Counted from the stretch's first letter, positions 8,400-33,623 are shown. The stretch is 64,000 nucleotides of DNA from an uncultured Alphaproteobacteria bacterium (GCA_964645285.1 CAZYDR010000001.1:4182-68181); one strand, 5' to 3'. Notes: generated by a model from the sequence alone, not told the origin. Program-made: numbers and translations.

Positions 8400-8403
8400 T
8401 GTT

Positions 8404-9599: not shown

Positions 9600-9624
9600 A
9601 GACCGCATCGTCGAACCAGCTTTC
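9600..9624. repeat. 25-nt direct repeat copy A (24/25 identical to 14077..14101), a duplicated 3' end of the DUF1244 gene
   Basis: AGACCGC[A]TCGTCGAACCAGCTTTC. On the minus strand this encodes ESWFDDAV, in frame with and just upstream of the Rieske gene ATG. Confidence 0.7.
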
Positions 9625-9732
9625 ACGACGGCGGCAATGGTTGACCTTTCAATCGCCGCCGATGTTGCCGTACCATGAGGCGCGGTCGTCGTCTTCGCGC
9701 CGCATAATCCTGATGCAACGGTAGGAACCACT

Positions 9733-10656: not shown

Positions 10657-10675
10657 GCGATAGAAGGTAGAAAAG

Positions 10676-14864: not shown

Positions 14865-14867
14865 TGG

Positions 14868-16393: not shown

Positions 16394-16767
16394 AGGAAAC
16401 TCATTTCGCCCTCGACAACCATCTCGCTATCCGATGTCAGGGTCAGGCCGAAGGTGACCCAGGGCCGGCCTTTCTTACGCTCCTTTGCGATGCACCGGGC
16501 ACGGGCCATGAAGCGGTCCCCCGGCGCCAGAAGCCGCCCCACGGTCAGGCTCTGGCCGGCATGGATATTCCCCGGCGGGCGCGGCGAAATGATGGAAATA
16601 TAGGCGCGCATCATCATGCCGATAGTCATTTCGACACGGCCATCAAAGTCGCCCATGTCCGGAAAGGCTTTACCTAGGTGATCGCGCGCGTCGTCGGTCA
16701 CGACCATCTCGCGTGTACCGATCTCGTGGCCGACCTGGAAATCGTCGAAAGTGAGAACTTTGCTCAT
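16381..16767 (-). CDS. hotdog-fold protein (MaoC N-terminal-like hydratase partner subunit)
   Basis: 128-aa hotdog-fold protein overlapping the MaoC gene start; this pairing is typical of heteromeric ChsH1/ChsH2-like enoyl-CoA hydratases. Confidence 0.65.
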   Translation of the reverse strand: MSKVLTFDDFQVGHEIGTREMVVTDDARDHLGKAFPDMGDFDGRVEMTIGMMMRAYISIISPRPPGNIHAGQSLTVGRLLAPGDRFMARARCIAKERKKGRPWVTFGLTLTSDSEMVVEGEMSFLWAK

Positions 16768-16834: not shown

Positions 16835-18478
16835 CTAGGCGTTGCCCTCGCCGTGAACCACCCTGCCGCCGACAATGGTGGTGTCCACCTGAACCTCCTT
16901 AAGAGCATCGATCGGAATCTCGAATGGGTTTCGGTCGAGTACGATGACGTCGGCCAGCTTGCCGGTCTCGATCGAGCCCTTGCTGTCTTCCTCGAACCCG
17001 GCGCGGGCCGAGAAGGTCGTATAGAGCCGGATGCCGTCCATCACGGTGAGCGCTTCCTCGGGGCAGATTAGGCGGCCGCTCCGGGTCTCGCGGGCGACAG
17101 TGCACCAGATGCTCCACCACGGGTTCAACGCCTCGGGCTCGGTGCCCATGGAATCCGAATTGCCCGGCGGCATGAAGCCTTCGTCCAGCAGAGTGCGATA
17201 GGGCGCCGCCTTGTCGCCCTGGTTGGCGGTCTCGAGCCAGCCGTCGCCATACCAGCCTAGCGAACTGTAGGGCGTCGGCACCGGGATGATTCCCAACTCC
17301 TTGAGTCGGGCCAGCCCTTCGGGCCAATAGTCGCCGGCGAAATGTTCGATGCGGTGGCGATGATCGGCGCGCGGCGCCGCGTCCAGGGTGGTGCTGACCG
17401 CCTCGATGGCCATGGCCTGAGCGTCACGGGAGATGGCGTGCATCATCATGCGGATGCCGGATTTGTGAGCGCCGGCAACCAGATCGTTCAACTCGTCCTG
17501 GCTGAGGCGCATCCATTCCTGGTGAACGCCGTCGGCATCGCGCCCGGCGCCGTCGATGAACATCTTGGCGCTGCCGAATTTGAGCCAGTCGTTGCCGAAG
17601 CCAGTCTGCATTCCGAGGTTGATCAAGCCTTCGAGATCAACCGTGCGATACATTCCCCAGACGCAGGGGCAAAGCTGCACCCGGAGCGGCAGTTCGCCGT
17701 CGCGGTAGAGGTCCTGATAAATTCGCGTGCTCTCGGGCCAGCTCAGGAACTCGTGGATGCCGGTGATGCCGAACGCGGAGGCCTCGCCTAGGGTCTCGCG
17801 AATGGCGCCCTTGAGGGTGTAGTAGGGCCACGGGTTATGTTTGCGAAAAATCCAGTCGATGGCCTCGTGAATGATGCCCGTGGGCTCGCCGCTCGCCGTA
17901 TCGCGAACGATGCGACCGCCGTTGGCGACCGCGTGGAGTTCGGCGTCGGTCGGCGAATCCCTGGTTATGCCGGCCATGGCGAGGGCCTTGCCGTTCAACA
18001 TCTGACAGTGGGCGCTGTAGCGAACCATAAGCGGATGATCCGGCGCCGCCGCGTCGAAATCCGCCCGGCTCGGCGAGTTGCCGTCGGCCTCCAGAGGGAA
18101 ACGGCCCTGGCCGATGATCCACCGACCTTTGGGCGTGCGCGCAGCCTCGTCCCTGACCCAGGCGAGAATGGCCTCGCGGGTGTCGCCACCGCCCGAGACG
18201 CCGACATATTCGACCGGCGGGATATGGCAGCTCCCGGCCAGCTTGGTGTGGGTCGCCGTGCAATCGAGATGGATGTGGGTATCGATGAACCCCGGCAACG
18301 CGACGCGGCCCTTGAGGTCGATCACCCGCGTCTGGTCACCGATCAAGGCGTCCATGTCGGACCCGGCGCCCAGCGCAACGATGCGCTCGCCGTTAAAGGC
18401 GGCCGCTTCGACAGTCGTGCCGGCGGCATCCATGGTGACAATTTGGCCGTTCGTCAGAACCATATCCGCAGTCATCAT
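16835..18478 (-). CDS. amidohydrolase-family metal-dependent hydrolase
   Basis: The N-terminal metal-binding HxH lies in LPGFIDTHIHLD; 547 aa, amidohydrolase_3-like architecture. Confidence 0.8.
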   Translation of the reverse strand: MMTADMVLTNGQIVTMDAAGTTVEAAAFNGERIVALGAGSDMDALIGDQTRVIDLKGRVALPGFIDTHIHLDCTATHTKLAGSCHIPPVEYVGVSGGGDTREAILAWVRDEAARTPKGRWIIGQGRFPLEADGNSPSRADFDAAAPDHPLMVRYSAHCQMLNGKALAMAGITRDSPTDAELHAVANGGRIVRDTASGEPTGIIHEAIDWIFRKHNPWPYYTLKGAIRETLGEASAFGITGIHEFLSWPESTRIYQDLYRDGELPLRVQLCPCVWGMYRTVDLEGLINLGMQTGFGNDWLKFGSAKMFIDGAGRDADGVHQEWMRLSQDELNDLVAGAHKSGIRMMMHAISRDAQAMAIEAVSTTLDAAPRADHRHRIEHFAGDYWPEGLARLKELGIIPVPTPYSSLGWYGDGWLETANQGDKAAPYRTLLDEGFMPPGNSDSMGTEPEALNPWWSIWCTVARETRSGRLICPEEALTVMDGIRLYTTFSARAGFEEDSKGSIETGKLADVIVLDRNPFEIPIDALKEVQVDTTIVGGRVVHGEGNA

Positions 18479-18981
18479 TCCCAGTCCTTTCTTGCCTTTG
18501 AACAGAGCAATGTCTTGGCGTCATAGGGCCGCCGATAACCTGGACAGCGCCCACGACCTTCCGCTCCGCGGCATAATCGGTGACAGCCATCAGATACGAC
18601 CGCTACCCAGGGTGTCGTTGACCTAAATTAAGTTCGAGGGTGGTGATGCGGCCTGATGGATGGCCCGCGCTCTAGTCGAGACCCAATACGGTCTCTTCAA
18701 TGAGAAAATCGACCACCGCCTCAAGCGCCTCGTGGCCGTCGGCGCCGCCGGTCTTGGCGGTTTAGTTCCTTGACCCCGAACCGACTTTGTCACAACGACC
18801 ACTCTGCGCTACCATACTCGACTTCGCCCGCATACCAGCCCGACAGTTGGCACGGCGGGGAGGCAAACCGTTATTTCACGTTCGAGCACGACGGCGAAAA
18901 GCGACCCAGTACTGGCTTTATTTTGCAAGCCCCTTCAGCAACAAGCGGCCTTGCCCGCGGAAACCGTGATGGAGTTGAATC

Positions 18982-20460
18982 GTGACGGCAAAGAAACCGA
19001 ACGTCATCCTGATATTCGTCGATAATCATCCCGCGAATATGCTGGGATGCGCCGGCAACGACGAGGTTCACACGCCACATCTCGACAGCCTTGCGGCGCA
19101 AGGCACCCGGTTCAGCGACGCCTATTGTCCGAACGCCATGTGTTCGCCGTGCCGGGCATCGGTTCTGACAGGACTGATGCCTTCGCAACACGGCATTCAC
19201 ACCTGGCTGGATGACGCCGTCATCGACACCTGGCCGGAGAAATGGAATGCCATCGCGGAATTCTATACCCTGCCTGAACGCCTCGTTGAGGAGGGATACG
19301 ACACCGCGCTTATCGGAAAGTATCACCTTGGCATTGCCGACGAACCGCAGAATGGATTCAGGGAGTGGGTGACCTTACAGATCGGTCATGTATTGTCATT
19401 CTACGACAACGCGATGATCGACAACGGCAAGCGGGTTACCCATCCGGGGCATTCGGTCGATTATTTTACACAGCGCGCCGTTGACTATATCGGGGATCGC
19501 GGCAACGCTCCGGACCAGCCCTTCTTCATGTTTCTGACGTATCCGGCGCCTTACGGGCACTGGCCTTCCATCCAGGGCGAGCCGAACAATCGCTTCGCCG
19601 AGCGCTATCGCAATACCCCGTTCAATTCCGTGCCGCGAGAGGGGGTCAGCGGGAGTCTGGTTAACTGGTTGCTGGTCAGGCACGACAAAGTGCCTGGAGA
19701 AAAAGACCATGGTTATGTCGAGGATATGATTCAGATTCCCAACGACATGCCAACATTGCGAAACTACTACTCGCAGATGAGCATGGTCGACGAAGGCGTT
19801 GGAAATGTCCTGGCCGCGCTCGACAACAGCGGCCTGAGCGAGGATACGCTGGTCATCTATACGTCCGATCATGGCATGTCGCTGGGCGAGCATGGGTTCT
19901 GGGGGCATGGCGAGGATACCTGGCCGTCCAACACGTTTCGTGAAGCCAACCATATTCCGCTGATCGTAAGACCGCCCGGTGGCCCGGGCGGCGACCGCGT
20001 GGAACAACGCTTGGTCGGCACCACGGACATATTCGCCACCATTCTGGATTATTCGGGCGCCGCCTCGCCCGGCAAGGATGAAACAGCGTCGAGAAGCCTT
20101 CGCCGATTGATCGAAGGGTCCGAGTCTGATTGGAACGACGCCGTGTTCATGGAACAGGAGGAAACCCGGTCCATTCGGACTCCCGAATGGCTGTTCATGC
20201 GACGGTTCGAGCCGACCTCGTACAATTTCGATCACGAGCTGTTCGATTTGACGCAGGACCCCGACGAACGAAACAATGTCGCCAATGACCCTTCATACCG
20301 GTCGGTCGTCGACGAGTTGTCAGCCCGAATAGAGGCTTACTTTGAAAAATATTCCGACCCCAAATGGAACTTGTGGAAGGGCGGTACCTTGAAGTCAAAC
20401 TCGGGCAGACCATTTCTCTGGAAAGAAGCGTGGGGAGAGAATTGGGAACCAGGATTCTAA
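18982..20460 (+). CDS. sulfatase-family protein (formylglycine-dependent)
   Basis: The CxPxR formylglycine motif CSPCRAS is followed by GLMPSQHG, and the N-terminus PNVILIFVDN is typical of the alkaline-phosphatase-like sulfatase fold. Confidence 0.85.
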   Translation: MTAKKPNVILIFVDNHPANMLGCAGNDEVHTPHLDSLAAQGTRFSDAYCPNAMCSPCRASVLTGLMPSQHGIHTWLDDAVIDTWPEKWNAIAEFYTLPERLVEEGYDTALIGKYHLGIADEPQNGFREWVTLQIGHVLSFYDNAMIDNGKRVTHPGHSVDYFTQRAVDYIGDRGNAPDQPFFMFLTYPAPYGHWPSIQGEPNNRFAERYRNTPFNSVPREGVSGSLVNWLLVRHDKVPGEKDHGYVEDMIQIPNDMPTLRNYYSQMSMVDEGVGNVLAALDNSGLSEDTLVIYTSDHGMSLGEHGFWGHGEDTWPSNTFREANHIPLIVRPPGGPGGDRVEQRLVGTTDIFATILDYSGAASPGKDETASRSLRRLIEGSESDWNDAVFMEQEETRSIRTPEWLFMRRFEPTSYNFDHELFDLTQDPDERNNVANDPSYRSVVDELSARIEAYFEKYSDPKWNLWKGGTLKSNSGRPFLWKEAWGENWEPGF

Positions 20461-20525
20461 ACGGAAACCGACGCGGATTAGGCTAGTCGTGGTTTCCAGT
20501 GAGCGTTGGAAAAGAATTTCAGGGG

Positions 20526-20569
20526 CGCCGACAATTCATGGAATTGATTCCGTGGTCAAGGTCGAATCT
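20526..20569. repeat. ~44-bp IS30-like terminus adjacent to the transposase remnant
   Basis: GCGCCGACAATTCATGGAATTGATTCCGTGGTCAAGGTCGAATC; partner of 14472..14515. Confidence 0.6.
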
Positions 20570-20604
20570 TGACATCGGAGCATGTCCGCTGTTGGGATGC
20601 CGCC

Positions 20605-20746
20605 TCAGGGTCGCAATGTAGCTGTTCTGCGGTCCCGACAACAAATCGCCTTCCCAGTGACCCGGCACCGCCCGATCCTCGACCGAAGCCGGGCGCTCGC
20701 TGATCGACACCATGTCCCTGATCTGACCACGGTCAATGCCTTTCCG
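20605..20746 (-). mobile_element. IS30-family transposase remnant (internal ~47 codons only)
   Basis: RRKGIDRGQIRDMVSISERPASVEDRAVPGHWEGDLLSGPQNSYIATL matches the conserved IS30 core up to the HWEGDL motif. Flanking sequence in the same frame loses similarity, so the gene is internally deleted and inactive. Confidence 0.6.
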
Positions 20747-20799
20747 CCGCGCCAGTTTGGAGCGACGGATCGTGCGCCTGGCGTCTGGCGACCCTTCGG

Positions 20800-21074
20800 A
20801 CGCCCCGCTGATCGACTTCAATTATCTTGACGCGCCAGAAGACTTGGATGACTTGCGCGCCTGTGTTCACCAAGCGCGCGATGTGGTGGCGCAGGAGGCC
20901 TTCGATCCCTATCGTAGGCCGGCCGAAGAGCCCTGGGCTTCCGCCCGCGCGGACGACGGAATTGACCAGCTCATCCGCAAAACCGCGGAGAGCGCCTATC
21001 ATCCCTGTGGGACCTGTAAGATGGGCCACGACCTGCGCATCCACGTGCCGCTGGTGATCGGCGCCGATCTCTGA
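20800..21074 (+). pseudogene. C-terminal fragment of a GMC-family oxidoreductase (choline-dehydrogenase-like), 5' part missing
   Basis: NYLDAPEDLDDLRACVHQARDVVAQEAFDPYRR...AESAYHPCGTCKMG matches the GMC oxidoreductase C-terminal substrate-binding domain, including the catalytic His region. Only about 90 codons remain, downstream of the IS30 remnant. Confidence 0.65.
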
Positions 21075-21108
21075 GACCATACCCGGCCAAACCTTGAGGA
21101 GCGGAACC

Positions 21109-21291
21109 ATGGCGCTGGAAATGCGCGAGCAATGCGAGAAGTGTGAGCGGGCTTTGGGCAACGGCGACGAGGCTCATATCTGCAGCTATGAATGCACCTT
21201 TTGCGGCGACTGCACGGGCGCCATGAACGCCGTCTGCCCCAACTGCGGCGGCGAGCTGTTGCGCCGGCCGCGCCGCGCAGCATCCGACTAG
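21109..21291 (+). CDS. DUF1272 family small Cys-rich protein
   Basis: CEKCERAL...ICSYECTFCGDCTGAMNAVCPNCGGELLRRP fits the DUF1272 zinc-ribbon-like pattern. There is a GAGGAG RBS 8 nt upstream of the ATG. Confidence 0.6.
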   Translation: MALEMREQCEKCERALGNGDEAHICSYECTFCGDCTGAMNAVCPNCGGELLRRPRRAASD

Positions 21292-21300
21292 GCACCGTCC

Positions 21301-21636
21301 GTGGAACCCCGGCTCGGCGCCCAGCTATGGGTCGAGGCTCATATCTGGCGCTGCTGGACCAACGACGTGCCGGCCATGCTGGTGCGCCGCGGCCACGACA
21401 TGGCGGGGATCGTACTGCTCAAGATCAATCGTATCGAGGACGGCTGTACGGTGCTGGCGCCGGCCACGGATCTCGACGGCAATCGAACCTGGTTTCATGC
21501 CAGCGGCGAGCCGTGGGTATCGGAGGCCGACGCGGATGGGTATATCGCCCGTCGCTTGGAGAGCGATCCGGACCTCTGGGTGGTCGAGATCGAGGATCGC
21601 GAAGGCCGACACTTCCTCGACGACCCGGTGGAATAG
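21301..21636 (+). CDS. DUF1491 family protein
   Basis: LWVEAHIWRCWTNDVPAMLVRRGHDMAGIVLLKINR resembles DUF1491; GTG start. Confidence 0.55.
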   Translation: MEPRLGAQLWVEAHIWRCWTNDVPAMLVRRGHDMAGIVLLKINRIEDGCTVLAPATDLDGNRTWFHASGEPWVSEADADGYIARRLESDPDLWVVEIEDREGRHFLDDPVE

Positions 21637-21656
21637 GCGCGCCTATTCCACGCGCG
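21631..21656. repeat. 26-nt perfect palindrome overlapping the DUF1491 stop codon
   Basis: GTGGAATAGGCGC|GCGCCTATTCCAC is fully self-complementary. No U-tract follows it. Confidence 0.6.
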
Positions 21657-22027
21657 CGCGGCGCCCCGGGTTACAGGACGACAGATACGGCGATCGAAAG
21701 AGCGATGATGGCGAAGGCGGTCAGGCTGCTGACCAGAAGGCCGTCGTAGAGTCGCAAAATTCGGTCGATAAGGCGGTGGTTCGTCGTCAACGTGGTCTTC
21801 TGCCCGGCCGATGCCGGGCCTGCATAGTCGGTCGCTTGGATGCCAGCGGGCCGAGGTTCGAAACCACCGCTTCAATCTACGCCCGCGGTATTAACAATTC
21901 CTGACGACGGGCGAAAAAAATGTGCCCTACAGGAAAATAATTTCGCGCCAAGAGGATTGGACCCGTGGCAACGCTTGGCCTAGCATGGCCGCCCGATTAT
22001 CACCGTCGTCGCGCGCAAGGAATCACC

Positions 22028-22807
22028 ATGCCTAAACTCGCCGCCAATCTCAGTATGATGTTCAACGAGGTCGACTTCCTCGACCGTTTTGCCGCCGTCG
22101 CCAAGGCCGGCTTCAAGGGCGTCGAATATCTCTTCCCCTACGAACACGACAAGGATCAGCTCGCCGAGCTGCTCGGCAAGCACGGCCTGACCCAGGCGCT
22201 GCATAATATGCCGGCGGGCGGTTGGGGCACCGGTGAGCGCGGCCTTGGCTGCCTCCCTGACCGGGTTACCGAGTTTCAGGACGGCGTCGGCCTAGCCATC
22301 GATTACGCCACCACATTGGGCTGCAAGCGGCTCAACTGCCTGGCCGGCGTGGCGCCGGACGGAGTTGATGACGACGCCCTGCGCGATACCTTCGTGCACA
22401 ACCTGCGCTTCGCCGCCGGCGAATGCGCCAAGGCCGGCATCACCGTGATGAGCGAGCCCATCAACACCCGAGATATTCCCGGCTTCTACCTGAACCGCAC
22501 GAACCAGGCGTTAGCTATCTTCGACGAGGTCGACGCGCCAAACCTCATGCTGCAATACGACATCTATCACATGCAGATCATGGAGGGCGATCTCGCCCCC
22601 ACCATCGAGGCCAATCTCGGCCGCATCGCCCACATGCAGCTCGCCGACACCCCAGGCCGCCACGAGCCGGGCAGCGGCGAAATCAACTTCGACTTCCTGC
22701 TCGGCCACATCGACACCATCGGCTACGACGGCTGGATCGGCTGCGAATACAAACCCGCCGGCAACACTGTCGAAGGCCTCGGCTGGACCACACCCTATCT
22801 CGCGTAG
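22028..22807 (+). CDS. hyi: hydroxypyruvate isomerase / xylose-isomerase-like TIM-barrel protein
   Basis: MPKLAANLSMMFNEVDFLDRF...GFKGVEY is near-canonical for Hyi. The start is trimmed to that Met. Confidence 0.8.
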   Translation: MPKLAANLSMMFNEVDFLDRFAAVAKAGFKGVEYLFPYEHDKDQLAELLGKHGLTQALHNMPAGGWGTGERGLGCLPDRVTEFQDGVGLAIDYATTLGCKRLNCLAGVAPDGVDDDALRDTFVHNLRFAAGECAKAGITVMSEPINTRDIPGFYLNRTNQALAIFDEVDAPNLMLQYDIYHMQIMEGDLAPTIEANLGRIAHMQLADTPGRHEPGSGEINFDFLLGHIDTIGYDGWIGCEYKPAGNTVEGLGWTTPYLA

Positions 22808-22844
22808 TACCGCGACACATGCAATCACGAAAGGAAACAGACAA

Positions 22845-23732
22845 ATGACAAACATCGGATTTATCGGCCTTGGCATCATGGGACGCCCGATGGCAGGCCA
22901 TCTGCTGACGGCCGGCCACGAGTTGGCGCTGTACGACAAGTACATCTCGCCGTTGCCCCGGGAGTTGACGGACGGCGAAGGCATCGAATGCGCTTCGGGC
23001 AAGGAGGTGACCGAACGCTCCGACGTCATCATCGTCATGGTGCCCGACACCCCCGATGTCGAGGCGGTGCTGTTTGGCGCCGGCGGCGTTGCCGAGGGCT
23101 TGTCCAAGGGCAAGACCGTGATCGACATGAGCTCGATCTCGCCGATCGAGACCAAGGACTTCGCCAAGCGCGTCAACGATCTCGGCTGCGACTACCTCGA
23201 TGCGCCGGTGTCCGGCGGCGAGGTCGGCGCCAAGGCCGGCGCCCTGACCATCATGGTCGGCGCCGAGCAGGCGGCCTTCGACGCCATGACGCCGCTGTTC
23301 GAAATCATGGGCCAGAACATCACCCTGGTCGGCGGCAACGGCGACGGCCAAACCTGCAAGGTTGCCAACCAGATCATCGTCGCGCTCAACATCGAGGCCG
23401 TCGCCGAAGCCCTGCTGTTCGCCGCCAAGGCGGGCGCCGACCCGGCCAAGGTGCGCGAGGCGCTGATGGGCGGATTCGCCTCGTCAAAGATCCTTGAGGT
23501 CCATGGCGAGCGCATGATCAAGCGCACCTTCGATCCCGGCTTCCGTATCCGCCTGCATCAGAAAGACCTCAGCCTCGCCCTTTCCGGCGCCCGCGCCCTG
23601 GGCCTCAGCCTACCCAACACGGCGACGGCTCAGGAACTGTTCAACGCCTGCAGCGCCAACGGCGGCGCCGACTGGGACCACTCGGCCATGGTCAAGGCCC
23701 TCGAGCTCATGGGCGGCCACGAGGTCGGGTGA
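22845..23732 (+). CDS. 2-hydroxy-3-oxopropionate (tartronate semialdehyde) reductase / beta-hydroxyacid dehydrogenase family
   Basis: The N-terminal GFIGLGIMGRPMAGHL NAD(P)-binding motif is present; the 3-hydroxyisobutyrate dehydrogenase family includes GlxR/GarR. Confidence 0.8.
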   Translation: MTNIGFIGLGIMGRPMAGHLLTAGHELALYDKYISPLPRELTDGEGIECASGKEVTERSDVIIVMVPDTPDVEAVLFGAGGVAEGLSKGKTVIDMSSISPIETKDFAKRVNDLGCDYLDAPVSGGEVGAKAGALTIMVGAEQAAFDAMTPLFEIMGQNITLVGGNGDGQTCKVANQIIVALNIEAVAEALLFAAKAGADPAKVREALMGGFASSKILEVHGERMIKRTFDPGFRIRLHQKDLSLALSGARALGLSLPNTATAQELFNACSANGGADWDHSAMVKALELMGGHEVG

Positions 23733-23736
23733 GGCC

Positions 23737-24489
23737 ATGACATTGCAAGTCGCCGACCACTGGTTCGAACACCGGGCTATCGATGATGACCTGACCCTGA
23801 TATGGGAGCCCCATGTAACGTCGTTCGGGCGCTGTAATATCTGGCATGTGCGGGGCCGTGACCGGGACATGCTGATCGACACCGGCATGGGTATGGCGTC
23901 GTTGAAAGACGCCATAGGCCATATGCTGGACAAGCCGGTGCTGGCGGTGGCCAGCCATACCCACTTCGATCATGTGGGCTCGCACCACGAGTTCGACGAG
24001 CGCGTGGTCCATGCCGGCGAGGCCGATACCCTGGCCCACCCGACTGGCGAAAACACGGTGGCCGCCGGCTACGTTGATGAGACCATGATCACCGCCCTAC
24101 CCCACGCCGGCTACGACGTCGCCACCTACGAAATCAAGGCGGCGCCGGCGACCCGGGTGGTCGAGAACGGCGACGTTATTGATCTCGGTGACCGGATCTT
24201 CGAGGTCATCCACATGCCCGGCCACTCGCCCGGCAGCATGGGCCTGTGGGAGGAGGCGAGCGGTCTGTTGTTCTCGGGCGACGCCATCTACGACGGCCAA
24301 TTGCTCGACTCGCTCTACCACTCCGACGTTCCCGACTACCTCACCACCCTCGAGCGCCTGCGCGCCCTCCCCGCCAATGTGGTCCACGGCGGCCACAAGT
24401 CGAGCTTCGGCCACGAGCGCATGATCGAGATCGTCGACGACTACATGGCCGGCAAACGCGCGCCGGAATGCCCGGGGAAGACGACGTAG
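23737..24489 (+). CDS. MBL-fold metallo-hydrolase
   Basis: HxHxDH motif in ASHTHFDHVGSHHEF, and the downstream His in HMPGHSPGS. Confidence 0.75.
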   Translation: MTLQVADHWFEHRAIDDDLTLIWEPHVTSFGRCNIWHVRGRDRDMLIDTGMGMASLKDAIGHMLDKPVLAVASHTHFDHVGSHHEFDERVVHAGEADTLAHPTGENTVAAGYVDETMITALPHAGYDVATYEIKAAPATRVVENGDVIDLGDRIFEVIHMPGHSPGSMGLWEEASGLLFSGDAIYDGQLLDSLYHSDVPDYLTTLERLRALPANVVHGGHKSSFGHERMIEIVDDYMAGKRAPECPGKTT

Positions 24490-24589
24490 GATATCTGTCC
24501 ACACAGGGCGTCACACCTCTTCCAAACCGAGGCCGATCGGCTAGACTGCCGCCAGCAACAGCTTGGACATTAACCGGAGGACAGAGACC

Positions 24590-25483
24590 ATGAGTGAAAT
24601 GAATATGGGCGTCGTGCTCACCTGTGCGGTGACCGGTGCCAGCGATACGGCGGACAAGCATCCCGGCCTTCCGATCACGCCCGAGCAGATCGCGGCCGCG
24701 GCTATCGAAGCCGCCAAGGCCGGTGCCTCAGTGGCCCATTGCCACGTGCGCGACCCGAAAACCGGCAAAAATGCCTTCCGCACGGACCTGTTTCGTGAAG
24801 TGACCGAGCGCATCCGCGAGAGCGAGACCGACATCGTCATCAACCTGACCGGCGGCAACGGCGGTGCCATGATCATCGACGATTCCAACCCGACGGTCAT
24901 GATGGACGGCAGCGACATCACCACCCCAGAGGGCCGGGTCGCTCACGCGGTCGAACTGCAGCCGGAAATCTGCAGCCTCGACATGGGCAACATCACCTTC
25001 GGCGACAACGTCATCTATGCCGGCCACCCCACCGCTATGCGCGACATGGCCAAGCGTATGCAGGCCGCCGGGGTCAAGCCGGAGATCGAAGTCTTCGACG
25101 TGGGCCCCATCATCCTCGCGGGCCAGATGGTTGACGAGGGTCTGCTCGACGCCCCGCCGCTGTTCCAGCTGTGTCTCGGCATCGGCGTCAACGCGCCCAT
25201 GGACACCAAGGTCATGATCGCCATGCGAGACGTTTTGCCCGCCGGTGCCGCGTGGTCGTCCTTCGGCATTTCGCGCCACCAGATGGGTATGGTCGCCAAG
25301 TCCGTGGCCCTGGGCGGCAACGCTCGGGTCGGCCTCGAGGACAACCTATACCTGTCACGCGGCGTCCTGGCCTCCAACGGCCAGCTCGTCGAGAAGGCCC
25401 GCGGCATCATCGAAGCCATGGGTTCCCGCGTGCTGACGCCCCAGGAGACCCGCGAGAAGCTCAACCTGAACAAGGTCAGGTAA
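24590..25483 (+). CDS. BKACE-family beta-keto acid cleavage enzyme (3-keto-5-aminohexanoate cleavage enzyme-like, DUF849)
   Basis: MNMGVVLTCAVTGA...PITPEQIAAAAIEAAKAGASVAHCHVRDPKTG is a TIM-barrel Zn enzyme signature of Kce/BKACE. RBS GGAGGA. Confidence 0.8.
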   Translation: MSEMNMGVVLTCAVTGASDTADKHPGLPITPEQIAAAAIEAAKAGASVAHCHVRDPKTGKNAFRTDLFREVTERIRESETDIVINLTGGNGGAMIIDDSNPTVMMDGSDITTPEGRVAHAVELQPEICSLDMGNITFGDNVIYAGHPTAMRDMAKRMQAAGVKPEIEVFDVGPIILAGQMVDEGLLDAPPLFQLCLGIGVNAPMDTKVMIAMRDVLPAGAAWSSFGISRHQMGMVAKSVALGGNARVGLEDNLYLSRGVLASNGQLVEKARGIIEAMGSRVLTPQETREKLNLNKVR

Positions 25484-25590
25484 GCCCTCCCGCCTGCCGT
25501 CCCCCGGGGCCGCGCCCATGAAGGCGTCGTGGCGCGGCCCCGGTTGTTGCCCTCTATCCGCCGCTCCGGCGGCTCGGAAAAACCATCGCC

Positions 25591-27654
25591 ATGAATCCTG
25601 ATTCGCCTTACGCCGTCCTCTTCGACGAGGTCAAAATCGGCCCTGTCACCGCCAAGAACCGGTTCTACCAGGTACCCCACTGTAACGGCATGGGCCGCCG
25701 CTATCCCACCGAGATGGCGGTCATGCGCGGGGTCAAGGCGGAAGGCGGCTGGGCGGTGGTGGCTACCGAGCAATGCGACATCCATCCCACCACCGAGGTC
25801 GGCACCCAGATCCGCCTGTGGGACGATCAGGACATTCCGTACCTGGCGCGCATGACCGAGCAGGTCCACAAGCACAACAGCCTTGCGGCCATCGAGTTCG
25901 TCCACATGGGCTATTACGGCGCTAACCTGGAAAGCCGCGAGGCCCTCATGGCGCCGTCCGGGCGGCCGGCTTACATGGCCATACCGGCCTATGCCCGGAC
26001 CATGGACAAGCAGGATATTCGCGACGTCCGGCGCTGGCACCGGGCGGCGACGGTGCGCGCCAAGCAGGCCGGCTTCGACATCGTCATCGTCTACGCCGGC
26101 CACAATCTGTCCATGGCCATGCATTTCATGTCGCCGCGGCTCAACCAGCGCACCGACGAGTACGGCGGCTCCATGGAGAACCGGGCGCGGCTGTTCCGCG
26201 AGCTTATCGAGGAGACCAAGGACGCGGTCGGCGACACCTGCGGTGTTGCGGTTCGCATGGCGGTCGACGAACTCATGGGCGAGCGCGGCATCATGGGCGC
26301 GCGCGAAGGCCGCGAGGTGGTCGAGACGCTCGCCGAACTGCCCGATCTGTGGGACGTCAACTGCAGCGACTGGGCGAACGATTCCATCACCTCGCGCTTC
26401 GCCGAGGAAGGCTTCCAGGAGCCCTATATCGATTTCGTCAAAGGCCTGACCAGCAAGCCGGTGGCCGGGGTCGGTCGCTATACCAGCCCGGACCGCATGG
26501 TCTCCCTGGTCAACAAGGGCGTGCTCGACATGATCGGCGCAGCGCGGCCCGCCATCGCCGATTCGTTCCTGCCCAAGAAGATCGAGGAAGGCCGCATCGA
26601 GGACATTCGCGAGTGCATCGGCTGCAACAACTGCGTCGCCTCGAACATCCAGAAGGTGCCCATCCTGTGCACCCAGAACCCGACCCAAGGCGAAGAGTGG
26701 CGTCGCGGCTGGCACCCGGAGCGCATCGGGCCTAAGGATACGGATGACAGTGTGCTGGTGGTCGGCGCCGGCGCCGCCGGCCTGGAAGCCACGCGGGCCC
26801 TGGGCCAGCGCGGCTACAATGCGACCCTGGCCGAGGCCGGTACCGAACTCGGCGGCCGAGTCGGCCGGGAATCAACCCTGCCGGGCCTCTCCGCCTGGGG
26901 CCGGGTGCGTGACTACCGGGCCTATCAGATCAGCCAGATGGCCACGGTGGAGACCTACTTCGACAGCCGCATGGACGTCGATGGTGTGCTCGAGGCGGGC
27001 TACTCCCTGGTCGCCCTGGCCACCGGCGCGCGCTGGCGCCGGGACGGCACCGGCCGCTCAATCGACAACCCGGTTGCCGGCCTCGATAGACTGGCGGTCT
27101 ATTCACCGGACGACATCATGGCCGGCGCGGCGGTCGAAGGCCCGGTGGTGATCTACGACGACGATCAGTTCTACATGGGCGGCGTCATCGCCGAGGCATT
27201 GCGCGCCCGGGACCTCGACGTCGCCATCGTCACGCCAGGTGCCCTGGTCTCGTCCCACACGGTCTTCACCCTGGAACAGGACCGCATTCAGACCCAGTTG
27301 CTCAACGCCGGGGTCGAGATCGTCGCCCTCCACAACCTGGCGGCGCTCGACAGCGACGGCGCCACGGTAGCCTGCAACTTCACCGGCAAAACCCGCAAGC
27401 TGGCCGCCGCCTCGGTGGTCATGGTGACGACCATGGAACCGGTCGATGATCTCTACCAGGCCCTGGCCGCGCGCCACGATGAATGGGCCGATCACGGCAT
27501 CCGCCGCATCATTCGCATCGGCGACTGCCTGGCGCCAGGCACCATCGCCCAGGCCGTCTGGAGCGGCCACCGATTCGCCCGCGAACTCGGCGAAACCGAT
27601 GGCGACGAAGTGCCCTACCGTCGCGAGAACGTGGAATTATCGGCCGATTATTGA
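25591..27654 (+). CDS. trimethylamine/dimethylamine/histamine dehydrogenase-family flavoprotein (FMN + 4Fe-4S + ADP-binding domain)
   Basis: YQVPHC (the Cys that forms 6-S-cysteinyl-FMN in trimethylamine dehydrogenase), the 4Fe-4S motif CIGCNNCVASN...ILCTQNPTQGEEWRRGWHPE, and a C-terminal Rossmann VLVVGAGAAGLE. 687 aa. Confidence 0.8.
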   Translation: MNPDSPYAVLFDEVKIGPVTAKNRFYQVPHCNGMGRRYPTEMAVMRGVKAEGGWAVVATEQCDIHPTTEVGTQIRLWDDQDIPYLARMTEQVHKHNSLAAIEFVHMGYYGANLESREALMAPSGRPAYMAIPAYARTMDKQDIRDVRRWHRAATVRAKQAGFDIVIVYAGHNLSMAMHFMSPRLNQRTDEYGGSMENRARLFRELIEETKDAVGDTCGVAVRMAVDELMGERGIMGAREGREVVETLAELPDLWDVNCSDWANDSITSRFAEEGFQEPYIDFVKGLTSKPVAGVGRYTSPDRMVSLVNKGVLDMIGAARPAIADSFLPKKIEEGRIEDIRECIGCNNCVASNIQKVPILCTQNPTQGEEWRRGWHPERIGPKDTDDSVLVVGAGAAGLEATRALGQRGYNATLAEAGTELGGRVGRESTLPGLSAWGRVRDYRAYQISQMATVETYFDSRMDVDGVLEAGYSLVALATGARWRRDGTGRSIDNPVAGLDRLAVYSPDDIMAGAAVEGPVVIYDDDQFYMGGVIAEALRARDLDVAIVTPGALVSSHTVFTLEQDRIQTQLLNAGVEIVALHNLAALDSDGATVACNFTGKTRKLAAASVVMVTTMEPVDDLYQALAARHDEWADHGIRRIIRIGDCLAPGTIAQAVWSGHRFARELGETDGDEVPYRRENVELSADY

Positions 27655-27908
27655 GAGAACTTGTCGCGGGCAGCCTCGGACGTGGTTACCGGGATGAACT
27701 CTAAGTCGACCAGGTCGCGCCAGTTGTCGGCCCAGGTCTCCAGCAGGGCCGGGTCGTCGCAGCTCATGGTCTGGTAGCAGCCACTCATGTCCGCCGTGAC
27801 CCAACTTTCGTGAAAGGTCAGACCGTCCGGCAACATGCGGCCGCGTTCTTCGACCCGGCGATAGACCGCCCCTGCGTCCTTGAAGCGCTCGATTACCATA
27901 TAGAGCAT
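27648..27908 (-). CDS. DUF3303-like small protein
   Basis: MLYMVIERFKD N-terminus is typical of DUF3303. The start is chosen at that Met to avoid overlapping the upstream gene. Confidence 0.5.
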   Translation of the reverse strand: MLYMVIERFKDAGAVYRRVEERGRMLPDGLTFHESWVTADMSGCYQTMSCDDPALLETWADNWRDLVDLEFIPVTTSEAARDKFSQ

Positions 27909-30007
27909 CAACGACCCTCGCCGCGCCATGCCAGCATCAGCCCGCTAAGAGCCATCATCAGCACCAGCCACGGCGCCATGAGCGGCGCCTGACGAATGCC
28001 CGTGACCCGGAAGTCCTGGTTGGCGCGGAGGCCGATCCAGCCGCGCCCGGCGCTATCGCGGCCCGGCGCGACCATTCGCAAATCGGGCACGCCGTCGGCG
28101 GCGAACCAGGCGAAGGCGCCGCCGCTGGCCCGCACCAAGGGCGCCAGGGGCACGGTGGAGGCGCGCAGGTCGGCGAACTCCAGCGGGTTCACGTCGCCGA
28201 CCAGGGCGATGGTCGAATGGACCCCGTCGCTGAGCCGGTAGAGCCCGGGATCGACCACGGTAATCGACGTGCCGGTGCGGCCATCGCCGAGATTCTCAAG
28301 GATGATCTCGCGCGGCTCTCCGGTTGGCGTGGTGACGACAACCGGAGAGCCGGTCTCGTCGAGACTGCGCCGGGTGATGTCGATGCGGTTGCCGTCGGTG
28401 ACGGCGCGCAGGTCCTCTTCCTCCAGGTCCGGCTCCTTCATGAGCCAATGAGCGACCCGGCGCAGCAGCTCGGCCTGGGGACCACCGCCCTCAAACCCCC
28501 GCGCCCACAGCCACATGTGGTCGCTGAGAAGCTGGGCCACCCGGCCCTCCTTGACCCGGTCGAGCACCAGGATCGGGCTTTCCTCGACCCCCGCCATGAG
28601 CACCGCCGCGCTGCCAGCCGTCAGGTCCACATCGACCTGGCGGAACCAGCGGCCCCAGTCGGCGACCTCGCCGGGGGGCCCGGCGCCGGGCAGGGCCGCG
28701 GTCACCGGATGGCGCCGACCGACATCGGTCAAGGCCGGGCGGAAGCCGCCTTCGAAGACCTCGCCGGTCGGTCCCGCCGGCAATATATAGGCCAATCCGG
28801 TCCGGGCCAGACTGGCCTCGCCCGCGTAGGCCGGGCCGGCGGCGGACAACAAGGCGCCGCCGTTCTCCACGTAGGCCGCGATGTTCTTAAGATAAGTCTC
28901 CGGTATGACGCCACGGCGGCGGTAGCGATCGAAGATGATCAAGTCGAACTCGTTGAGCTTCTCCTCGAACAACGCCTTGATGGGAAATGAAATCAGCGCC
29001 AGCTCGCGGATCGGCGTGGCGTCCTGTTTTTCCGGCGGCCGCAGAATAGTGAAGTGGATAAGATCGACCGACGGGTCGGACTTGAGCAGATTGCGCCAGA
29101 CCCGCTCGCCGGTATGGGCCTCGCCGGAAATCAACAGCACCCGCAAGCGGTCGCGGACGCCGTTGATGGCCACCACGGCGCGGTTGTTGAGCAGACTGAG
29201 CTCACTGGGCCCGTCTTCGACCTCGAGCTCGATTAGGGTCGTGCCGGGGCGGTCGAGGACGAATTCAATCTCGTGGGTTCCGCCAATGGGCACGAAACTC
29301 GATTCAGCCGGCCTGTCGTTGATCCGCGTGGTCAGCTTGACCAGGTCGCCCCGTTTGCTCGCATCCGATGAATCCTCGACCTTGATGATGACCGACAGGG
29401 TATTGCCGACAACGCCGTAGCGCGGCGCCTGCTCGATCACCAGACGGCGGTCGGTCTCGCCCGGGCCACCGGTGATCAGGGCATGGACCGGCGCCTCAAA
29501 ACCGAGTTCCGCCAGGGTCTCGGGCACGTCATGAACCTGACCGTCGGTGACCAGCACGGCCCCGGCGATGCGCCGCCGGAGGACATCGGACAACGTCTGG
29601 CGCAGGGTGTCGAACAGGGCGGTGCCGGATACCGCCGCGCCGGCCTCGCGGACCTCGCCGCCGACATGGACCACACGGGTCTCGACCCCCTCGAAGGTCT
29701 CCAGGCCGGCGATCACCGCATCGGCCGCCGCCTTGGCCTGATCGGCCCGCTCGCCGATGCGCTGGCTCAACGACTCATCGACCACCACCACCGCCACATC
29801 GGCAAGGCGCTCGCGGCTTTCCTCGACCAGTATCGGGTTGAGCAATGCAAGCACGGCCGCGCCCATGCCCAGGGCGCGCCACCAGATACCACGGGCCCGG
29901 CGCCACAGGCCGAAGCCGACTCCGGCCACCGCCAAGGCGGTCAGCACCAGGGTAATCGGCCAGGGAACCAATGGCGCGAAGGCGATGGTGGTGAGCTGCT
30001 CGGTCAT
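27908..30007 (-). CDS. large membrane protein of the MoxR/DUF58 (Bat-like) cluster, unknown function
   Basis: N-terminal TM helices (PLVPWPITLVLTALAVAGVGFGLW) and a C-terminal TM (MAPWLVLMMALSGLMLAW). Conserved position downstream of the DUF4159 protein. Confidence 0.6.
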   Translation of the reverse strand: MTEQLTTIAFAPLVPWPITLVLTALAVAGVGFGLWRRARGIWWRALGMGAAVLALLNPILVEESRERLADVAVVVVDESLSQRIGERADQAKAAADAVIAGLETFEGVETRVVHVGGEVREAGAAVSGTALFDTLRQTLSDVLRRRIAGAVLVTDGQVHDVPETLAELGFEAPVHALITGGPGETDRRLVIEQAPRYGVVGNTLSVIIKVEDSSDASKRGDLVKLTTRINDRPAESSFVPIGGTHEIEFVLDRPGTTLIELEVEDGPSELSLLNNRAVVAINGVRDRLRVLLISGEAHTGERVWRNLLKSDPSVDLIHFTILRPPEKQDATPIRELALISFPIKALFEEKLNEFDLIIFDRYRRRGVIPETYLKNIAAYVENGGALLSAAGPAYAGEASLARTGLAYILPAGPTGEVFEGGFRPALTDVGRRHPVTAALPGAGPPGEVADWGRWFRQVDVDLTAGSAAVLMAGVEESPILVLDRVKEGRVAQLLSDHMWLWARGFEGGGPQAELLRRVAHWLMKEPDLEEEDLRAVTDGNRIDITRRSLDETGSPVVVTTPTGEPREIILENLGDGRTGTSITVVDPGLYRLSDGVHSTIALVGDVNPLEFADLRASTVPLAPLVRASGGAFAWFAADGVPDLRMVAPGRDSAGRGWIGLRANQDFRVTGIRQAPLMAPWLVLMMALSGLMLAWRGEGR

Positions 30008-30012
30008 GGCCC

Positions 30013-32736
30013 TTACTGACTCAACCGGTCGAGGATCGCCGGCATGTGGACCTGATCGGCCTTGTAGTTGCCGGTCATGGCGTACATGGCAAGATTGATG
30101 CCGAAGCGGAACGCCCCTTCGCGCTGGCGCTCACCGCCCGGCACTACGGCGAACATGGGCCGCCGGCCTTCGTCCAACGCCCAGGCCGCGACCCAATCGT
30201 GGCTACCGATAATCAGCGACGAGACGCCGTCATTGACACCGCCCTCATGACGTTCGACCCAGACCTGACCGCCGATCCAGCGGCCGGGAAAATCGCGCAG
30301 GAGATAGAACGCCTTGGTCAGGACGTGATCCTCGGGCACCTGAATCAACGGCGGGATATCGAGCCCCCGCAGCAGCGTCCGCAGGCGCCGGGCTGCCGGG
30401 CTGAGGCCGCCCGACAGGCTGGTCGCGCCGATGTTGCAGTCGCGGGTGTCGAACAGGATGATGCCGCCGGTCTTGAGGTAGTGATTGACCTTGACCGCCG
30501 CCGCCGGCGACAGCGCTGCCTGGGACGCAGCGATCGGCCAATAAATCAGAGGAAAGAAAATCAGCTCGTCGTGCTCCACATCGATGGCCATGGGCTCGGC
30601 CGGCTCGATGGAGGTCCGCGCCGCAAGCACGATGCCAAGGCCGAACAGGCCATCGCGGCTATTGCCATCAATCTCGCTGTCGCCAGTCATGATAAACCCG
30701 AACCGCGACTCCAAGGTCGCTGCCAGGGCGAAGCCGTCGTCGCTCGTTGTCGTCTCCTGGGCCAGAGCCGGCGTCGCCACCATGGCCATCAACGCAACCC
30801 CGGCGGCAGTGCGTATGGCGCGACTGGGTACCAGGCCGCGCAAGATCATCCCGGCAATCAGGTCGCCGAACGCCAGCATCAGGGCGGCGATCAGGAACCA
30901 GGGTTTGAGATCCGCCTCGCCGGCCTCGCCGAAGATCCGGTGGGTGGCTGTCGCCGGCAGTTTGTCGATGGCCTCGATGGCAGTAAACCCGGCAGTCAGA
31001 TTAAGCACCTGGCGGGCGCCCTGAGCGCCGTAGTAGCCCGGCGGATGACGCGGTCCGGGGGAGACATCGCCGAACTCCCTGGCCGCCACCGGCCGGCTGT
31101 CTTCCGTCGGCGCGCCGAGGCGGCCGAACCCGTCAAGGGTTTGCAGCGGCGCCAGCGCACCGTCTTCCAGGTCGCCGGTTACACCCTGGCTCAACTGCAC
31201 CAGACGATAGAGCATCTCCACGAACAAGCCCGATATGGCGAGATCCGACCACGCCGTACTGGCGGTGGTGTGAACCAGTACCAGCCACCCATCACCCCGG
31301 CGCTCCGCCGTTACCAGGGGCGTACCGTCAACCAGCCGAACCCAGGTCTTGGCCGCCAGGTCGAGGGACGGTTCGGCCAGCATCTGGCGGCGAATGTGGA
31401 CATCGTCGGGAATGGTGAGCCCGGCAAAGGGCGTATGATCGGCGAACGGCGCGAGGCGGGCCGGTTCCTCCCACGACAGGGCGCCGCCAAAAGAGCGGCC
31501 GCCAAAGCGCAGGCGCACCGGCACCAGATCATCGGCGCCCTCGGCGATCCGCGGTCCGGCGAAGCGCAGCAGGACGCCACCACCGCTGATCCAGTTCTCG
31601 ACCAGTACCCGATCAGCGCCGACGACGGTCTTCACGTCGGCCAGCACCAACACCGCCAGGGGCCGCGCCAACAAGTCCCCGACCTCGCCGGTGCGAACTT
31701 CGCTGATCCGCTCGAGGGCACGCTCGAGATAGAAAATTTCCGAGAGCAGCGGCTGGTCGGCGTCGATCCCGGCGACCGACACCAGGCCGACCGGGCGGCG
31801 GCGCCAGCGTTCATCGAACAGCACCACCGCGTTGGCCCCGCGCTCACCCTCGATGTTCATGCGCGCCATGCGATTGCGCAGCTCGGCGGGGACGTCGAGT
31901 TCGACAACAGTGGTCTGCTCGCCATCACTGAAAGTCGCAGCCATGCGGGCGAGAACAGCGCCATCCTCGTCGCTGACCCGCAGCCACACGGTTTCTTCGG
32001 CCCGCGCCGCCGGGCGCAGCACCTTGATGTTCAGCGCCCCCGGCCCAGGCTCCGGCGGCAACAGGACATGAGCGCGGTCGAGGGGATCATCAAGCATGAC
32101 CTGAAAATTCCCCAGCGCCGCCAGGCGTTCGGCGAAGGCCGTGACGGAGGGGCTATGGATGCCGTCGCTGAGCCAGACCACATCAACATCGCCCTCGACC
32201 CGCAGGCCATCAAGGGCCGTCGCGGCGGCGGCGCGATCGACAGCCCAGGGCTTGGGCTCGAGAGCCTGGGTCAGGGTCAGAACTTCGTCGGCACGCATCA
32301 GGCGGCCGGCGTCTATCGCCACGTCCGCGGCGGTCGGCGCCGTGGTCAGCAGTACTACGGGCCGATCCTCGCGGGCGGCGCGTTCAAGGATATTGGTCAC
32401 GGCGGTCTGGCGCCGCTCCCAGCGCCGGGCGGCAGCCCAGCCGTCATCGACCACCAGGATCAACGGCCCGTCGCCATCGAGGCCGGTCTCCGGGTTGAGC
32501 AGCGGCTCAGCCAAACCGACGATCAACAGCGCTGCCAGAGCAAGACGAAGCGCAATCAGCCAGGGCGGCGTCTTGGCCGGCGTCTCCTCCTTGCCCGACA
32601 GGCCAAACAACAGGCGCACCGGTGGAAAGCGGACCAGCTTGGGCGCCGGCGGAAGCACCCGCAACAGCCACCAGATCACCGGCAACAACACCAGCGCCGC
32701 CAGCCCCCAAGGCGCGCCGAAAGTCAGGCCGCTCAT
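30013..32736 (-). CDS. N-terminal double-transmembrane domain / DUF4159-type protein of the MoxR-DUF58 cluster
   Basis: MSGLTFGAPWGLAALVLLPVIWWLLRVLPPAPKLVRFPPVRLL... is the hallmark N-terminus of the TIGR02226-type family; 907 aa. Confidence 0.65.
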   Translation of the reverse strand: MSGLTFGAPWGLAALVLLPVIWWLLRVLPPAPKLVRFPPVRLLFGLSGKEETPAKTPPWLIALRLALAALLIVGLAEPLLNPETGLDGDGPLILVVDDGWAAARRWERRQTAVTNILERAAREDRPVVLLTTAPTAADVAIDAGRLMRADEVLTLTQALEPKPWAVDRAAAATALDGLRVEGDVDVVWLSDGIHSPSVTAFAERLAALGNFQVMLDDPLDRAHVLLPPEPGPGALNIKVLRPAARAEETVWLRVSDEDGAVLARMAATFSDGEQTTVVELDVPAELRNRMARMNIEGERGANAVVLFDERWRRRPVGLVSVAGIDADQPLLSEIFYLERALERISEVRTGEVGDLLARPLAVLVLADVKTVVGADRVLVENWISGGGVLLRFAGPRIAEGADDLVPVRLRFGGRSFGGALSWEEPARLAPFADHTPFAGLTIPDDVHIRRQMLAEPSLDLAAKTWVRLVDGTPLVTAERRGDGWLVLVHTTASTAWSDLAISGLFVEMLYRLVQLSQGVTGDLEDGALAPLQTLDGFGRLGAPTEDSRPVAAREFGDVSPGPRHPPGYYGAQGARQVLNLTAGFTAIEAIDKLPATATHRIFGEAGEADLKPWFLIAALMLAFGDLIAGMILRGLVPSRAIRTAAGVALMAMVATPALAQETTTSDDGFALAATLESRFGFIMTGDSEIDGNSRDGLFGLGIVLAARTSIEPAEPMAIDVEHDELIFFPLIYWPIAASQAALSPAAAVKVNHYLKTGGIILFDTRDCNIGATSLSGGLSPAARRLRTLLRGLDIPPLIQVPEDHVLTKAFYLLRDFPGRWIGGQVWVERHEGGVNDGVSSLIIGSHDWVAAWALDEGRRPMFAVVPGGERQREGAFRFGINLAMYAMTGNYKADQVHMPAILDRLSQ

Positions 32737-33614: not shown

Positions 33615-33623
33615 GATGGGCGA

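Follow-up and report, generated by a model that had tools for sequence, protein, structure and literature searches.

The best described route resembling the locus considered here is the cdhCAB-type conversion of carnitine to glycine betaine in P. aeruginosa, in which an L-carnitine dehydrogenase, CdhC (an enzyme cleaving beta-keto acids, BKACE) and a betainyl-CoA thioesterase are followed by demethylation through GbcAB and DgcAB. The gene arrangement leading from carnitine through dehydrocarnitine to betainyl-CoA is already known (PMC9321204, PMC12421898). The locus lies in a stretch of 64,000 nucleotides from an uncultured alphaproteobacterium (GCA_964645285.1 CAZYDR010000001.1:4182-68181; 'the window'), a marine metagenome contig found in identical copies in three samples. 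It consists of five genes encoding a hydroxypyruvate isomerase-like enzyme (hyi), a tartronate-semialdehyde reductase-like enzyme (glxR), a metallo-beta-lactamase (MBL) fold hydrolase, a BKACE, and a flavoprotein of the trimethylamine dehydrogenase (TMADH) and histamine dehydrogenase (HADH) family. Like the cdhCAB route, the locus has a BKACE belonging beside the carnitine-operon enzymes, a hydrolase possibly acting on the CoA product and, in relatives of the window, a GbcA/CntA-like Rieske oxygenase followed by an amine-oxidising FMN/Fe-S flavoprotein. Unlike it, the window locus has no 3HCDH-type carnitine dehydrogenase, hot-dog thioesterase, CdhR/GbdR regulator or transporter; residues of the probable pocket of its BKACE differ and its Rieske gene is deleted. 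The flavoprotein is of the TMADH/HADH type and not recognisably close kin of DgcA or StcD, whose reference sequences lay outside the comparison. A second BKACE pathway, the oxidation of deoxyribonate by way of a lactonase, an SDR dehydrogenase and a BKACE that yields glyceryl-CoA (bioRxiv 10.1101/205583), resembles the window in having a hydrolase and a dehydrogenase beside the BKACE and a connection with glycerate metabolism. We set it aside, since the window BKACE falls among enzymes of the carnitine type and its companion dehydrogenase is a member of the 3-hydroxyisobutyrate dehydrogenase (HIBADH) family rather than of the SDR family; the amine-acting enzymes would also have no place there.

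We tentatively favour reading the region as composite, with an ordinary hyi-glxR pair standing beside the truncated remnant of a lineage-specific cassette for amine/keto-acid catabolism. The locus is best called a lineage-restricted, truncated variant of carnitine/betaine-type catabolism. All five genes are on the plus strand: hyi (22028–22807), glxR (22845–23732), the MBL-fold gene (23737–24489), the BKACE gene (24590–25483) and the flavoprotein gene (25591–27654). The intergenic gaps are 37, 4, 100 and 107 bp, the third being 73 bp if the BKACE open reading frame (ORF; 24563–25483) is counted from its TTG codon. An earlier note on this DNA had described these same-strand genes and their short spacing, which the ORFs confirm, and its five family assignments are upheld by Pfam, NCBIfam and PDB matches. 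Equivalog calls were made here by comparing NCBIfam scores with the curated cut-offs, and families were also assigned by Pfam. The window was compared with a set of related or homologue-bearing stretches (L001–L098). A scan of genome contigs with the single BKACE protein identified two close loci in metagenome-assembled genomes. The dN/dS ratio of each of the five window genes, measured against L009 and L010, lies between 0.12 and 0.24; all five are intact and under purifying selection. Scans for promoters and terminators across 21300–28100, and Rfam and tRNA scans of the window, gave no match.

Truncation is indicated by three related metagenome contigs, L008, L009 and L010, whose BKACEs are 92–93% identical to that of the window. 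In these the gene order is hyi-glxR-MBL-BKACE-Rieske-flavoprotein, the sixth gene encoding a Rieske oxygenase of 407 amino acids. The spacing around this gene is tight, with 2–18 bp between it and the BKACE gene and 21–47 bp between it and the flavoprotein gene. The best solved relative of its product is the carnitine monooxygenase CntA (3.6e-30, ~32% identical). The top NCBIfam match, the glycine-betaine monooxygenase GbcA, scores 112, far under the cut-off of 670. Within the window, the 107-bp gap separating the BKACE and flavoprotein genes can be aligned both to the final ~50 nucleotides of the Rieske gene and to the conserved flavoprotein leader. Because the gap retains both, the Rieske gene has been deleted from the window. 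By alignment to L008, L009 and L010, the remnant of its 3' end occupies 25495–25552 on the plus strand and now includes a 13-bp GC hairpin (25504–25543), part of a predicted fold of the 116-nucleotide BKACE-flavoprotein gap with an overall free energy of -51.5 kcal/mol. Contigs from three samples share this deletion. This sixth gene, missing from a gap of 107 bp, is beyond the view of a reading made from a single sequence.

More distant relatives carry only parts of the set. In L001 (BKACE 79% identical) the MBL, BKACE and Rieske genes occur alone, without hyi, glxR or the flavoprotein gene, and L097 (also 79%) has only hyi-glxR-BKACE. L011 has no BKACE and retains hyi-glxR and, further on, the MBL gene. 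In L002/L003 (76%) the BKACE gene stands in an Amidohydro_2-CobW-BKACE-LysR arrangement (L002 6125–9534). There the CobW gene (COG0523), a putative metallochaperone, adjoins the genes of two metal-dependent enzymes. The backbone common to these related loci is DUF1272-DUF1491 upstream and DUF3303-p699-BatA-DUF58-MoxR downstream. The sequences inserted between cluster genes in the relatives comprise an IS1595 transposase, a PD-(D/E)XK-like gene, and toxin-antitoxin pairs of the RelE/HTH and HigB/HTH kinds (L010 8857–9544; L011 7409–7991; L097 6797–7507 and 14328–15263), and show the region to be an insertion hotspot. Rather than a single conserved unit, the five genes form two units that are loosely joined and lie in a variable region. 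BKACE-Rieske-flavoprotein is tightly packed, the MBL gene is loosely attached to it, and hyi-glxR belong to the chromosomal backbone and are inherited with it. The compact module proposed in the earlier note thus stands in part: subsets of it occur apart in related genomes, which is partly the separation that the note had taken to speak against it, and what holds together in relatives is the BKACE-Rieske-flavoprotein unit.

The BKACE ORF opens at a TTG codon at 24563. Because homologues are all 297 amino acids long, translation probably begins at the ATG at 24590. The protein scores 306.7 bits against PF05853 (DUF849; cut-off 24.8) and covers 274 of 274 profile positions, and it falls below all four of the NCBIfam models that it matches (three equivalogs and one of exception type). 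The earlier note had asked whether the enzyme might cluster with Kce of lysine fermentation. It scores 233 against the Kce model NF052387, with a cut-off of 382, and is nearest to BKACEs of carnitine operons. The residues H50, H52, E250, T87, E165/E167, R246 and D251 align with H46, H48, E230, S82, E143, R226 and D231 of Kce, in what we take to be the Kce numbering, checked against the sequence of 2y7d only. By this alignment the zinc ligands and catalytic residues of Kce are all present, while the position equivalent to Kce Glu14 is Ser/Gly. In a neighbour-joining tree the window BKACE and homologues of 60–64% identity form a clade that is sister to, and not inside, the clade linked to L-carnitine dehydrogenase (CdhC type). 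A TG[GA]GDT motif is common to both clades and is absent from Kce, 3c6c and 9zsc. It seems most reasonable to suppose that the substrate of the window enzyme is related to, but different from, that of the carnitine clade, and that it is probably cationic.

A metagenome scan with the BKACE alignment provides a view of the carnitine-linked enzymes. At least 80 loci with BKACEs of 49–59% identity were identified among the matches listed. After clustering of these 80, 36 of 57 loci carry an L-carnitine-dehydrogenase-like gene, mostly immediately adjacent to the BKACE gene. The carnitine-linked loci also have genes for acyl-CoA dehydrogenases, for a hydratase resembling CaiD and a regulator resembling GbdR/CdhR, and for a thioesterase that matches the carnitine 3-dehydrogenase C-terminal domain. 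At none of the 80 was there a neighbouring gene of the MBL, Rieske, hyi, glxR or TMADH-like kind, and no additional member of the window clade was among the matches listed. No L-carnitine dehydrogenase gene occurs in the window or its related loci.

The flavoprotein combines an Oxidored_FMN domain with an NAD-binding domain. Its best PDB matches are the histamine dehydrogenases 6de6 (5.7e-222) and 3k30 (both with E near 1e-220), followed by 6l6j and TMADH (1djn, 5e-157), with ~52–54% identity to the histamine dehydrogenases and 45% to TMADH. The match to 2,4-dienoyl-CoA reductase is only 4.7e-34, and old-yellow-enzyme reductases are likewise far behind. These E-values place the protein among the TMADH/HADH amine dehydrogenases and not the enoate reductases, the two possibilities that the earlier note had left to be separated. 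The motifs YQVPHC and CIGCNNCV…CTQNPTQGEEWRRGW, named in that note, are seen in the translation, as is an ADP-binding VVGAGAAGLE. The cysteine of the first (C31) aligns with Cys35 of the N. simplex histamine dehydrogenase and Cys30 of TMADH, and is invariant across 117 of 117 homologues. The hallmarks of the family, namely the cysteine predicted to carry 6-S-cysteinyl-FMN, the 4Fe-4S motif and the ADP-binding domain, are all recognisable. The protein also resembles histamine dehydrogenase (N. simplex 3K30, Rhizobium 6DE6) and TMADH (1DJN/2TMD) in its three-domain architecture and in the CX2CX2CX11-12C spacing of its cysteines.

Unlike these enzymes, however, the window protein has an altered substrate pocket. 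In the N. simplex enzyme, histamine is proposed to be bound by Gln65, Ile74, Phe77, Glu79, Asn115, Tyr181, Trp267 and Asp358 (PMC10180351). At these positions, in N. simplex numbering, the flavoprotein retains Q65 and W267, carries I74V, E79Q, N115Y, Y181L and D358N, and lacks F77. With six of the eight proposed residues changed, histamine dehydrogenase function was rejected. The aromatic bowl of TMADH, which we take to be Tyr60, Trp264 and Trp355 and where the alignment places Y, W and W of TMADH, is also not maintained: the flavoprotein has Q, W and N in these columns, keeping one of three. The protein is thus best described as a predicted amine dehydrogenase of the TMADH/HADH type with a non-histamine pocket. 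It sits in a very large uncharacterised clade of 62–71% identity, annotated at most as 'dimethylamine/trimethylamine dehydrogenase'. Homologues of 63–70% identity have betaine or methylamine contexts; their neighbours include, in L014, MR/MLE enzymes, a Rieske oxygenase and betaine-binding OpuAC proteins, in L015, an MTTB methyltransferase and a creatininase, and in L016, GMC oxidoreductases, PhyH and TauD. In the Leisingera thetidis plasmid NZ_CP109788.1 (L098, 2061–15188) the gene of a 57%-identical flavoprotein overlaps that of a Rieske alpha subunit. Genes for an agmatinase, a polyamine-type ABC transporter and a TetR regulator come before the pair, MR/MLE and GMC genes after it, and the plasmid offers a cultivable system for the flavoprotein-Rieske pairing.

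The MBL protein is a member of a large unnamed family, with a score of 86 bits against Lactamase_B (PF00753) and a complete binuclear metal motif (HxHxDH…H…D…H). It matches no NCBIfam equivalog, scoring 43 against GloB (TIGR03413; cut-off 201). Its top PDB sequence match, at a weak 1.4e-10, is the YcbL-type glyoxalase II 2xf4. The AlphaFold model has a pLDDT of 94.8, and Foldseek returns only generic MBL folds for it: beta-lactamases (SPM-1), LACTB2, PqsE and YcbL at similar scores. Homologues of 58–61% identity (L012, L013; 6755–9700) belong to a conserved trio of acyl-CoA dehydrogenase, MBL and polysaccharide deacetylase genes, a context compatible with, though no proof of, an acyl-CoA substrate. 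A thioesterase role for the protein is possible. In L012/L013, arginase, CN-hydrolase, M24 peptidase and DDAH-like genes lie near the trio.

The upstream pair has a more familiar appearance. The hyi product is a hydroxypyruvate isomerase/2-oxo-tetronate isomerase-type TIM barrel (AP_endonuc_2, PF01261, 171 bits), which passes both the OtnI model (NF043033, 374 with a cut-off of 325) and the Hyi model (TIGR03234, 359 with a cut-off of 353); the scores do not separate the two predicted functions. The glxR product, a tartronate-semialdehyde (2-hydroxy-3-oxopropionate) reductase of the HIBADH family, passes two of the three GlxR/GarR equivalog models, with 462 against PRK15059 (cut-off 451) and 408 against TIGR01505 (cut-off 341), and falls below the cut-offs for L-threonate dehydrogenase (173 against 350) and HIBADH (189 against 292). 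The two genes are also adjacent in L008–L011 and L097. Most likely they are the usual pair leading from hydroxypyruvate/tartronate semialdehyde to D-glycerate. As in the E. coli-type gcl-hyi-glxR cluster, they adjoin on the same strand and exceed their cut-offs; unlike in that cluster, neither a gcl-sized enzyme dependent on thiamine pyrophosphate nor any other candidate glyoxylate carboligase was found in the window, as the earlier note had remarked, nor beside hyi-glxR in L008–L011 and L097. The glycolate oxidase genes glcD-glcE-glcF (FAD-oxidase, FAD_binding_4 and CCG/4Fe-4S proteins) are located at 356–4431, 18 kb upstream of hyi-glxR.

In the composite reading, the full cassette of the sister genomes would consist of the MBL hydrolase followed by a tight BKACE-Rieske oxygenase-amine dehydrogenase operon, with its step logic borrowed from the sequence carnitine, glycine betaine, dimethylglycine. 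The zinc-dependent BKACE would use acetyl-CoA to cleave a cationic beta-keto acid carrying an amino or N-methylammonio group, producing acetoacetate and an aminoacyl- or betainyl-type CoA thioester, which the MBL enzyme may hydrolyse. The Rieske oxygenase would act on a quaternary or tertiary nitrogen in oxidative C-N cleavage, and the covalent-FMN/4Fe-4S flavoprotein would oxidatively cleave lower amines and pass electrons to electron-transfer flavoprotein. In the window this cassette would have been truncated by the deletion of the Rieske gene. A quaternary/N-methyl-amine theme for the locus, as put forward in the earlier note, is plausible: a CntA/GbcA-like Rieske gene occupies the exact position in relatives, and flavoprotein homologues occur in betaine/methylamine neighbourhoods. 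The order of steps proposed there is not borne out. Demethylation by the flavoprotein is unproven, because its closest solved relatives are deaminating amine dehydrogenases.

Several observations weigh against the composite reading. The tight operon is confined to one narrow lineage (dS about 0.4–0.6), so its conservation may reflect shared descent; and since the informative loci are all close relatives, the juxtaposition could be accidental. A BKACE of the same clade, with identical signature residues, occurs in L002/L003 without any partner of this set, and in L010 a toxin-antitoxin pair splits the MBL gene from the BKACE gene. At conserved positions that probably line the pocket, the BKACE has F63, N90 and G-V-N where the carnitine clade has R, M and P-W-G; the cluster has no gene of carnitine-dehydrogenase type, no transporter and no regulator, and neither the sequence nor the fold of the MBL protein singles out a thioesterase role. 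Loss of the Rieske gene means either that the set dispenses with it or that the pathway is defunct, and the substrate is not one that can be named in silico.

These observations bear directly on an unlikely but serious alternative, in which the genes have no functional link: unrelated single-enzyme genes would have gathered in a hypervariable region and kept their order through the close kinship of the genomes compared. Every subset of the genes occurs somewhere, toxin-antitoxin, PD-(D/E)XK and transposase insertions interrupt L010, L011 and L097, and the flanks contain pseudogene fragments (the GMC fragment described below and, in L010, a broken upstream Rieske gene). The lack of these partners at the 80 more distant BKACE loci among the matches listed is also what this alternative would predict. 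However, the BKACE-Rieske-flavoprotein gaps of 2–47 bp in three contigs are operon-like, the pairing of a Rieske gene with a TMADH-like gene recurs independently, and a coherent amine/betaine theme runs across the enzymes. The opposite extreme, a linear five-gene pathway, follows the proposal of the earlier note: the dehydrogenase, here of GlxR type, would convert a beta-hydroxy amino acid or betaine acid to the beta-keto acid, BKACE would cleave this, the MBL enzyme would hydrolyse the CoA thioester and the flavoprotein would demethylate the product, with Hyi as an accessory. The shared strand and short gaps, the hyi-glxR-MBL-BKACE order retained in L008–L010, the placement of hyi-glxR directly before BKACE in L097 despite the absence of the MBL gene, and the kinship of the BKACE to carnitine-pathway enzymes would all fit such a pathway. 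It is nonetheless improbable, the most so of the readings weighed here. It leaves out the Rieske gene, whose place is between the BKACE and flavoprotein genes. In addition, hyi-glxR occur without BKACE (L011) and BKACE without hyi-glxR (L001, L002), and known carnitine dehydrogenases, such as those carried by related BKACE loci, are of the 3HCDH family. The dehydrogenase, for its part, passes two of three GlxR/GarR models and adjoins its classical partner hyi, and nothing indicates that it makes a beta-keto acid.

A different way of integrating the genes begins with C-N cleavage, by the Rieske oxygenase for a betaine or the flavoprotein for a lower amine, to give an acid with an omega-oxo or 2-hydroxy-aldehyde group, for instance malic or malonate semialdehyde. 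A Hyi/OtnI-type enzyme would then turn the 2-hydroxy-aldehyde into a 3-oxo acid, for example 4-hydroxy-3-oxobutanoate. BKACE would cleave this to acetoacetate and glycolyl- or formyl-CoA, the MBL enzyme would hydrolyse the acyl-CoA, and GlxR would take the semialdehyde. Malic semialdehyde is what CntA, nearest to the Rieske protein among solved structures, makes from carnitine. The scores of the hyi product are those of a family interconverting hydroxy acids of the 2-oxo and 3-oxo kinds, the glcDEF genes are found 18 kb upstream, and all six genes receive a role. Acceptance of malonate semialdehyde by more than 20 of 124 BKACEs, giving formyl-CoA (PMC11961710), is also in keeping with it. However, this route is without precedent and follows from chemical logic alone, hyi-glxR are separable from the other genes, and the Asp-containing motif common to the window BKACE and the carnitine clade suggests a cationic rather than a hydroxy beta-keto acid; we consider the scheme improbable. 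Equally doubtful is a broader form of it, in which the six-gene arrangement would be an undescribed route for a marine osmolyte resembling carnitine or beta-alanine betaine, proceeding through C-N cleavage, Hyi-type isomerisation, BKACE and an MBL thioesterase. The Rieske oxygenase would there serve the quaternary form and the flavoprotein lower amines, the products would be acetoacetate and a C1/C2 acyl-CoA, and the window variant would have dropped the quaternary-amine entry step. Between these extremes, a composite of a backbone hyi-glxR pair and a truncated amine/keto-acid cassette is the account that we tentatively retain.

Two genes upstream of the locus had been thought to fit the same theme. 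The sulfatase (18982–20460, plus strand) falls below its NCBIfam cut-offs, with 151 against 433 for choline-sulfatase and 202 against 481 for arylsulfatase. It was rejected as a member of the module, being 26% identical to the L016 sulfatase near a flavoprotein homologue and absent from L008–L010. The truncated GMC-oxidoreductase gene (20772–21074, plus strand) is a fragment whose product of 100 amino acids comprises only the C-terminal domain (PF05199). It was likewise rejected, as a C-terminal piece that is 45% identical to the full-length GMC genes of L016. Both genes, together with DUF1272 and DUF1491, lie within 18000–22000, where the GC content is ~0.60 as opposed to 0.63–0.68 around it. 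Upstream of DUF1272 the content of L010 differs and includes a methyltransferase and the broken Rieske gene. On the other side of the locus, at 27648–34634, the minus strand encodes DUF3303, a protein of 699 amino acids without a family match, BatA/DUF4159 (907 amino acids), DUF58 and a MoxR AAA ATPase. Of these genes, that of DUF3303 is convergent with the flavoprotein gene and overlaps it by 7 bp at the flavoprotein stop codon.

Further upstream in the window, a second catabolic group (5945–12676) comprises a gamma-glutamyltranspeptidase, an alpha/beta hydrolase, a luciferase-like monooxygenase and an Abhydrolase_10 protein, as well as another Rieske oxygenase (8404–9555, minus strand) that is 27% identical to the deleted one. 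The minus strand at 14532–16767 carries two small ORFs, one of them encoding 110 amino acids with a CxxC motif, alongside a MaoC dehydratase and a thiolase-like gene. The adjoining gene at 16835–18478 encodes an amidohydrolase of 547 amino acids, and the whole resembles a separate acyl-CoA-type unit.

Clusters of known families with unassigned specificity are common, the copy in the window is partly eroded, and its anatomy would not surprise specialists; the enzymes are reasonable candidates for enzymology and specificity screening. N-methylated osmolytes are major carbon and nitrogen currencies of the ocean, yet many enzymes of their breakdown are still unassigned. Should the proposed BKACE-Rieske-flavoprotein pathway be correct, it would add a new class of BKACE substrate next to the carnitine clade and possibly an MBL-fold acyl-CoA thioesterase, and would provide a function for the very large clade of TMADH-like flavoproteins now labelled 'dimethylamine/trimethylamine dehydrogenase'.

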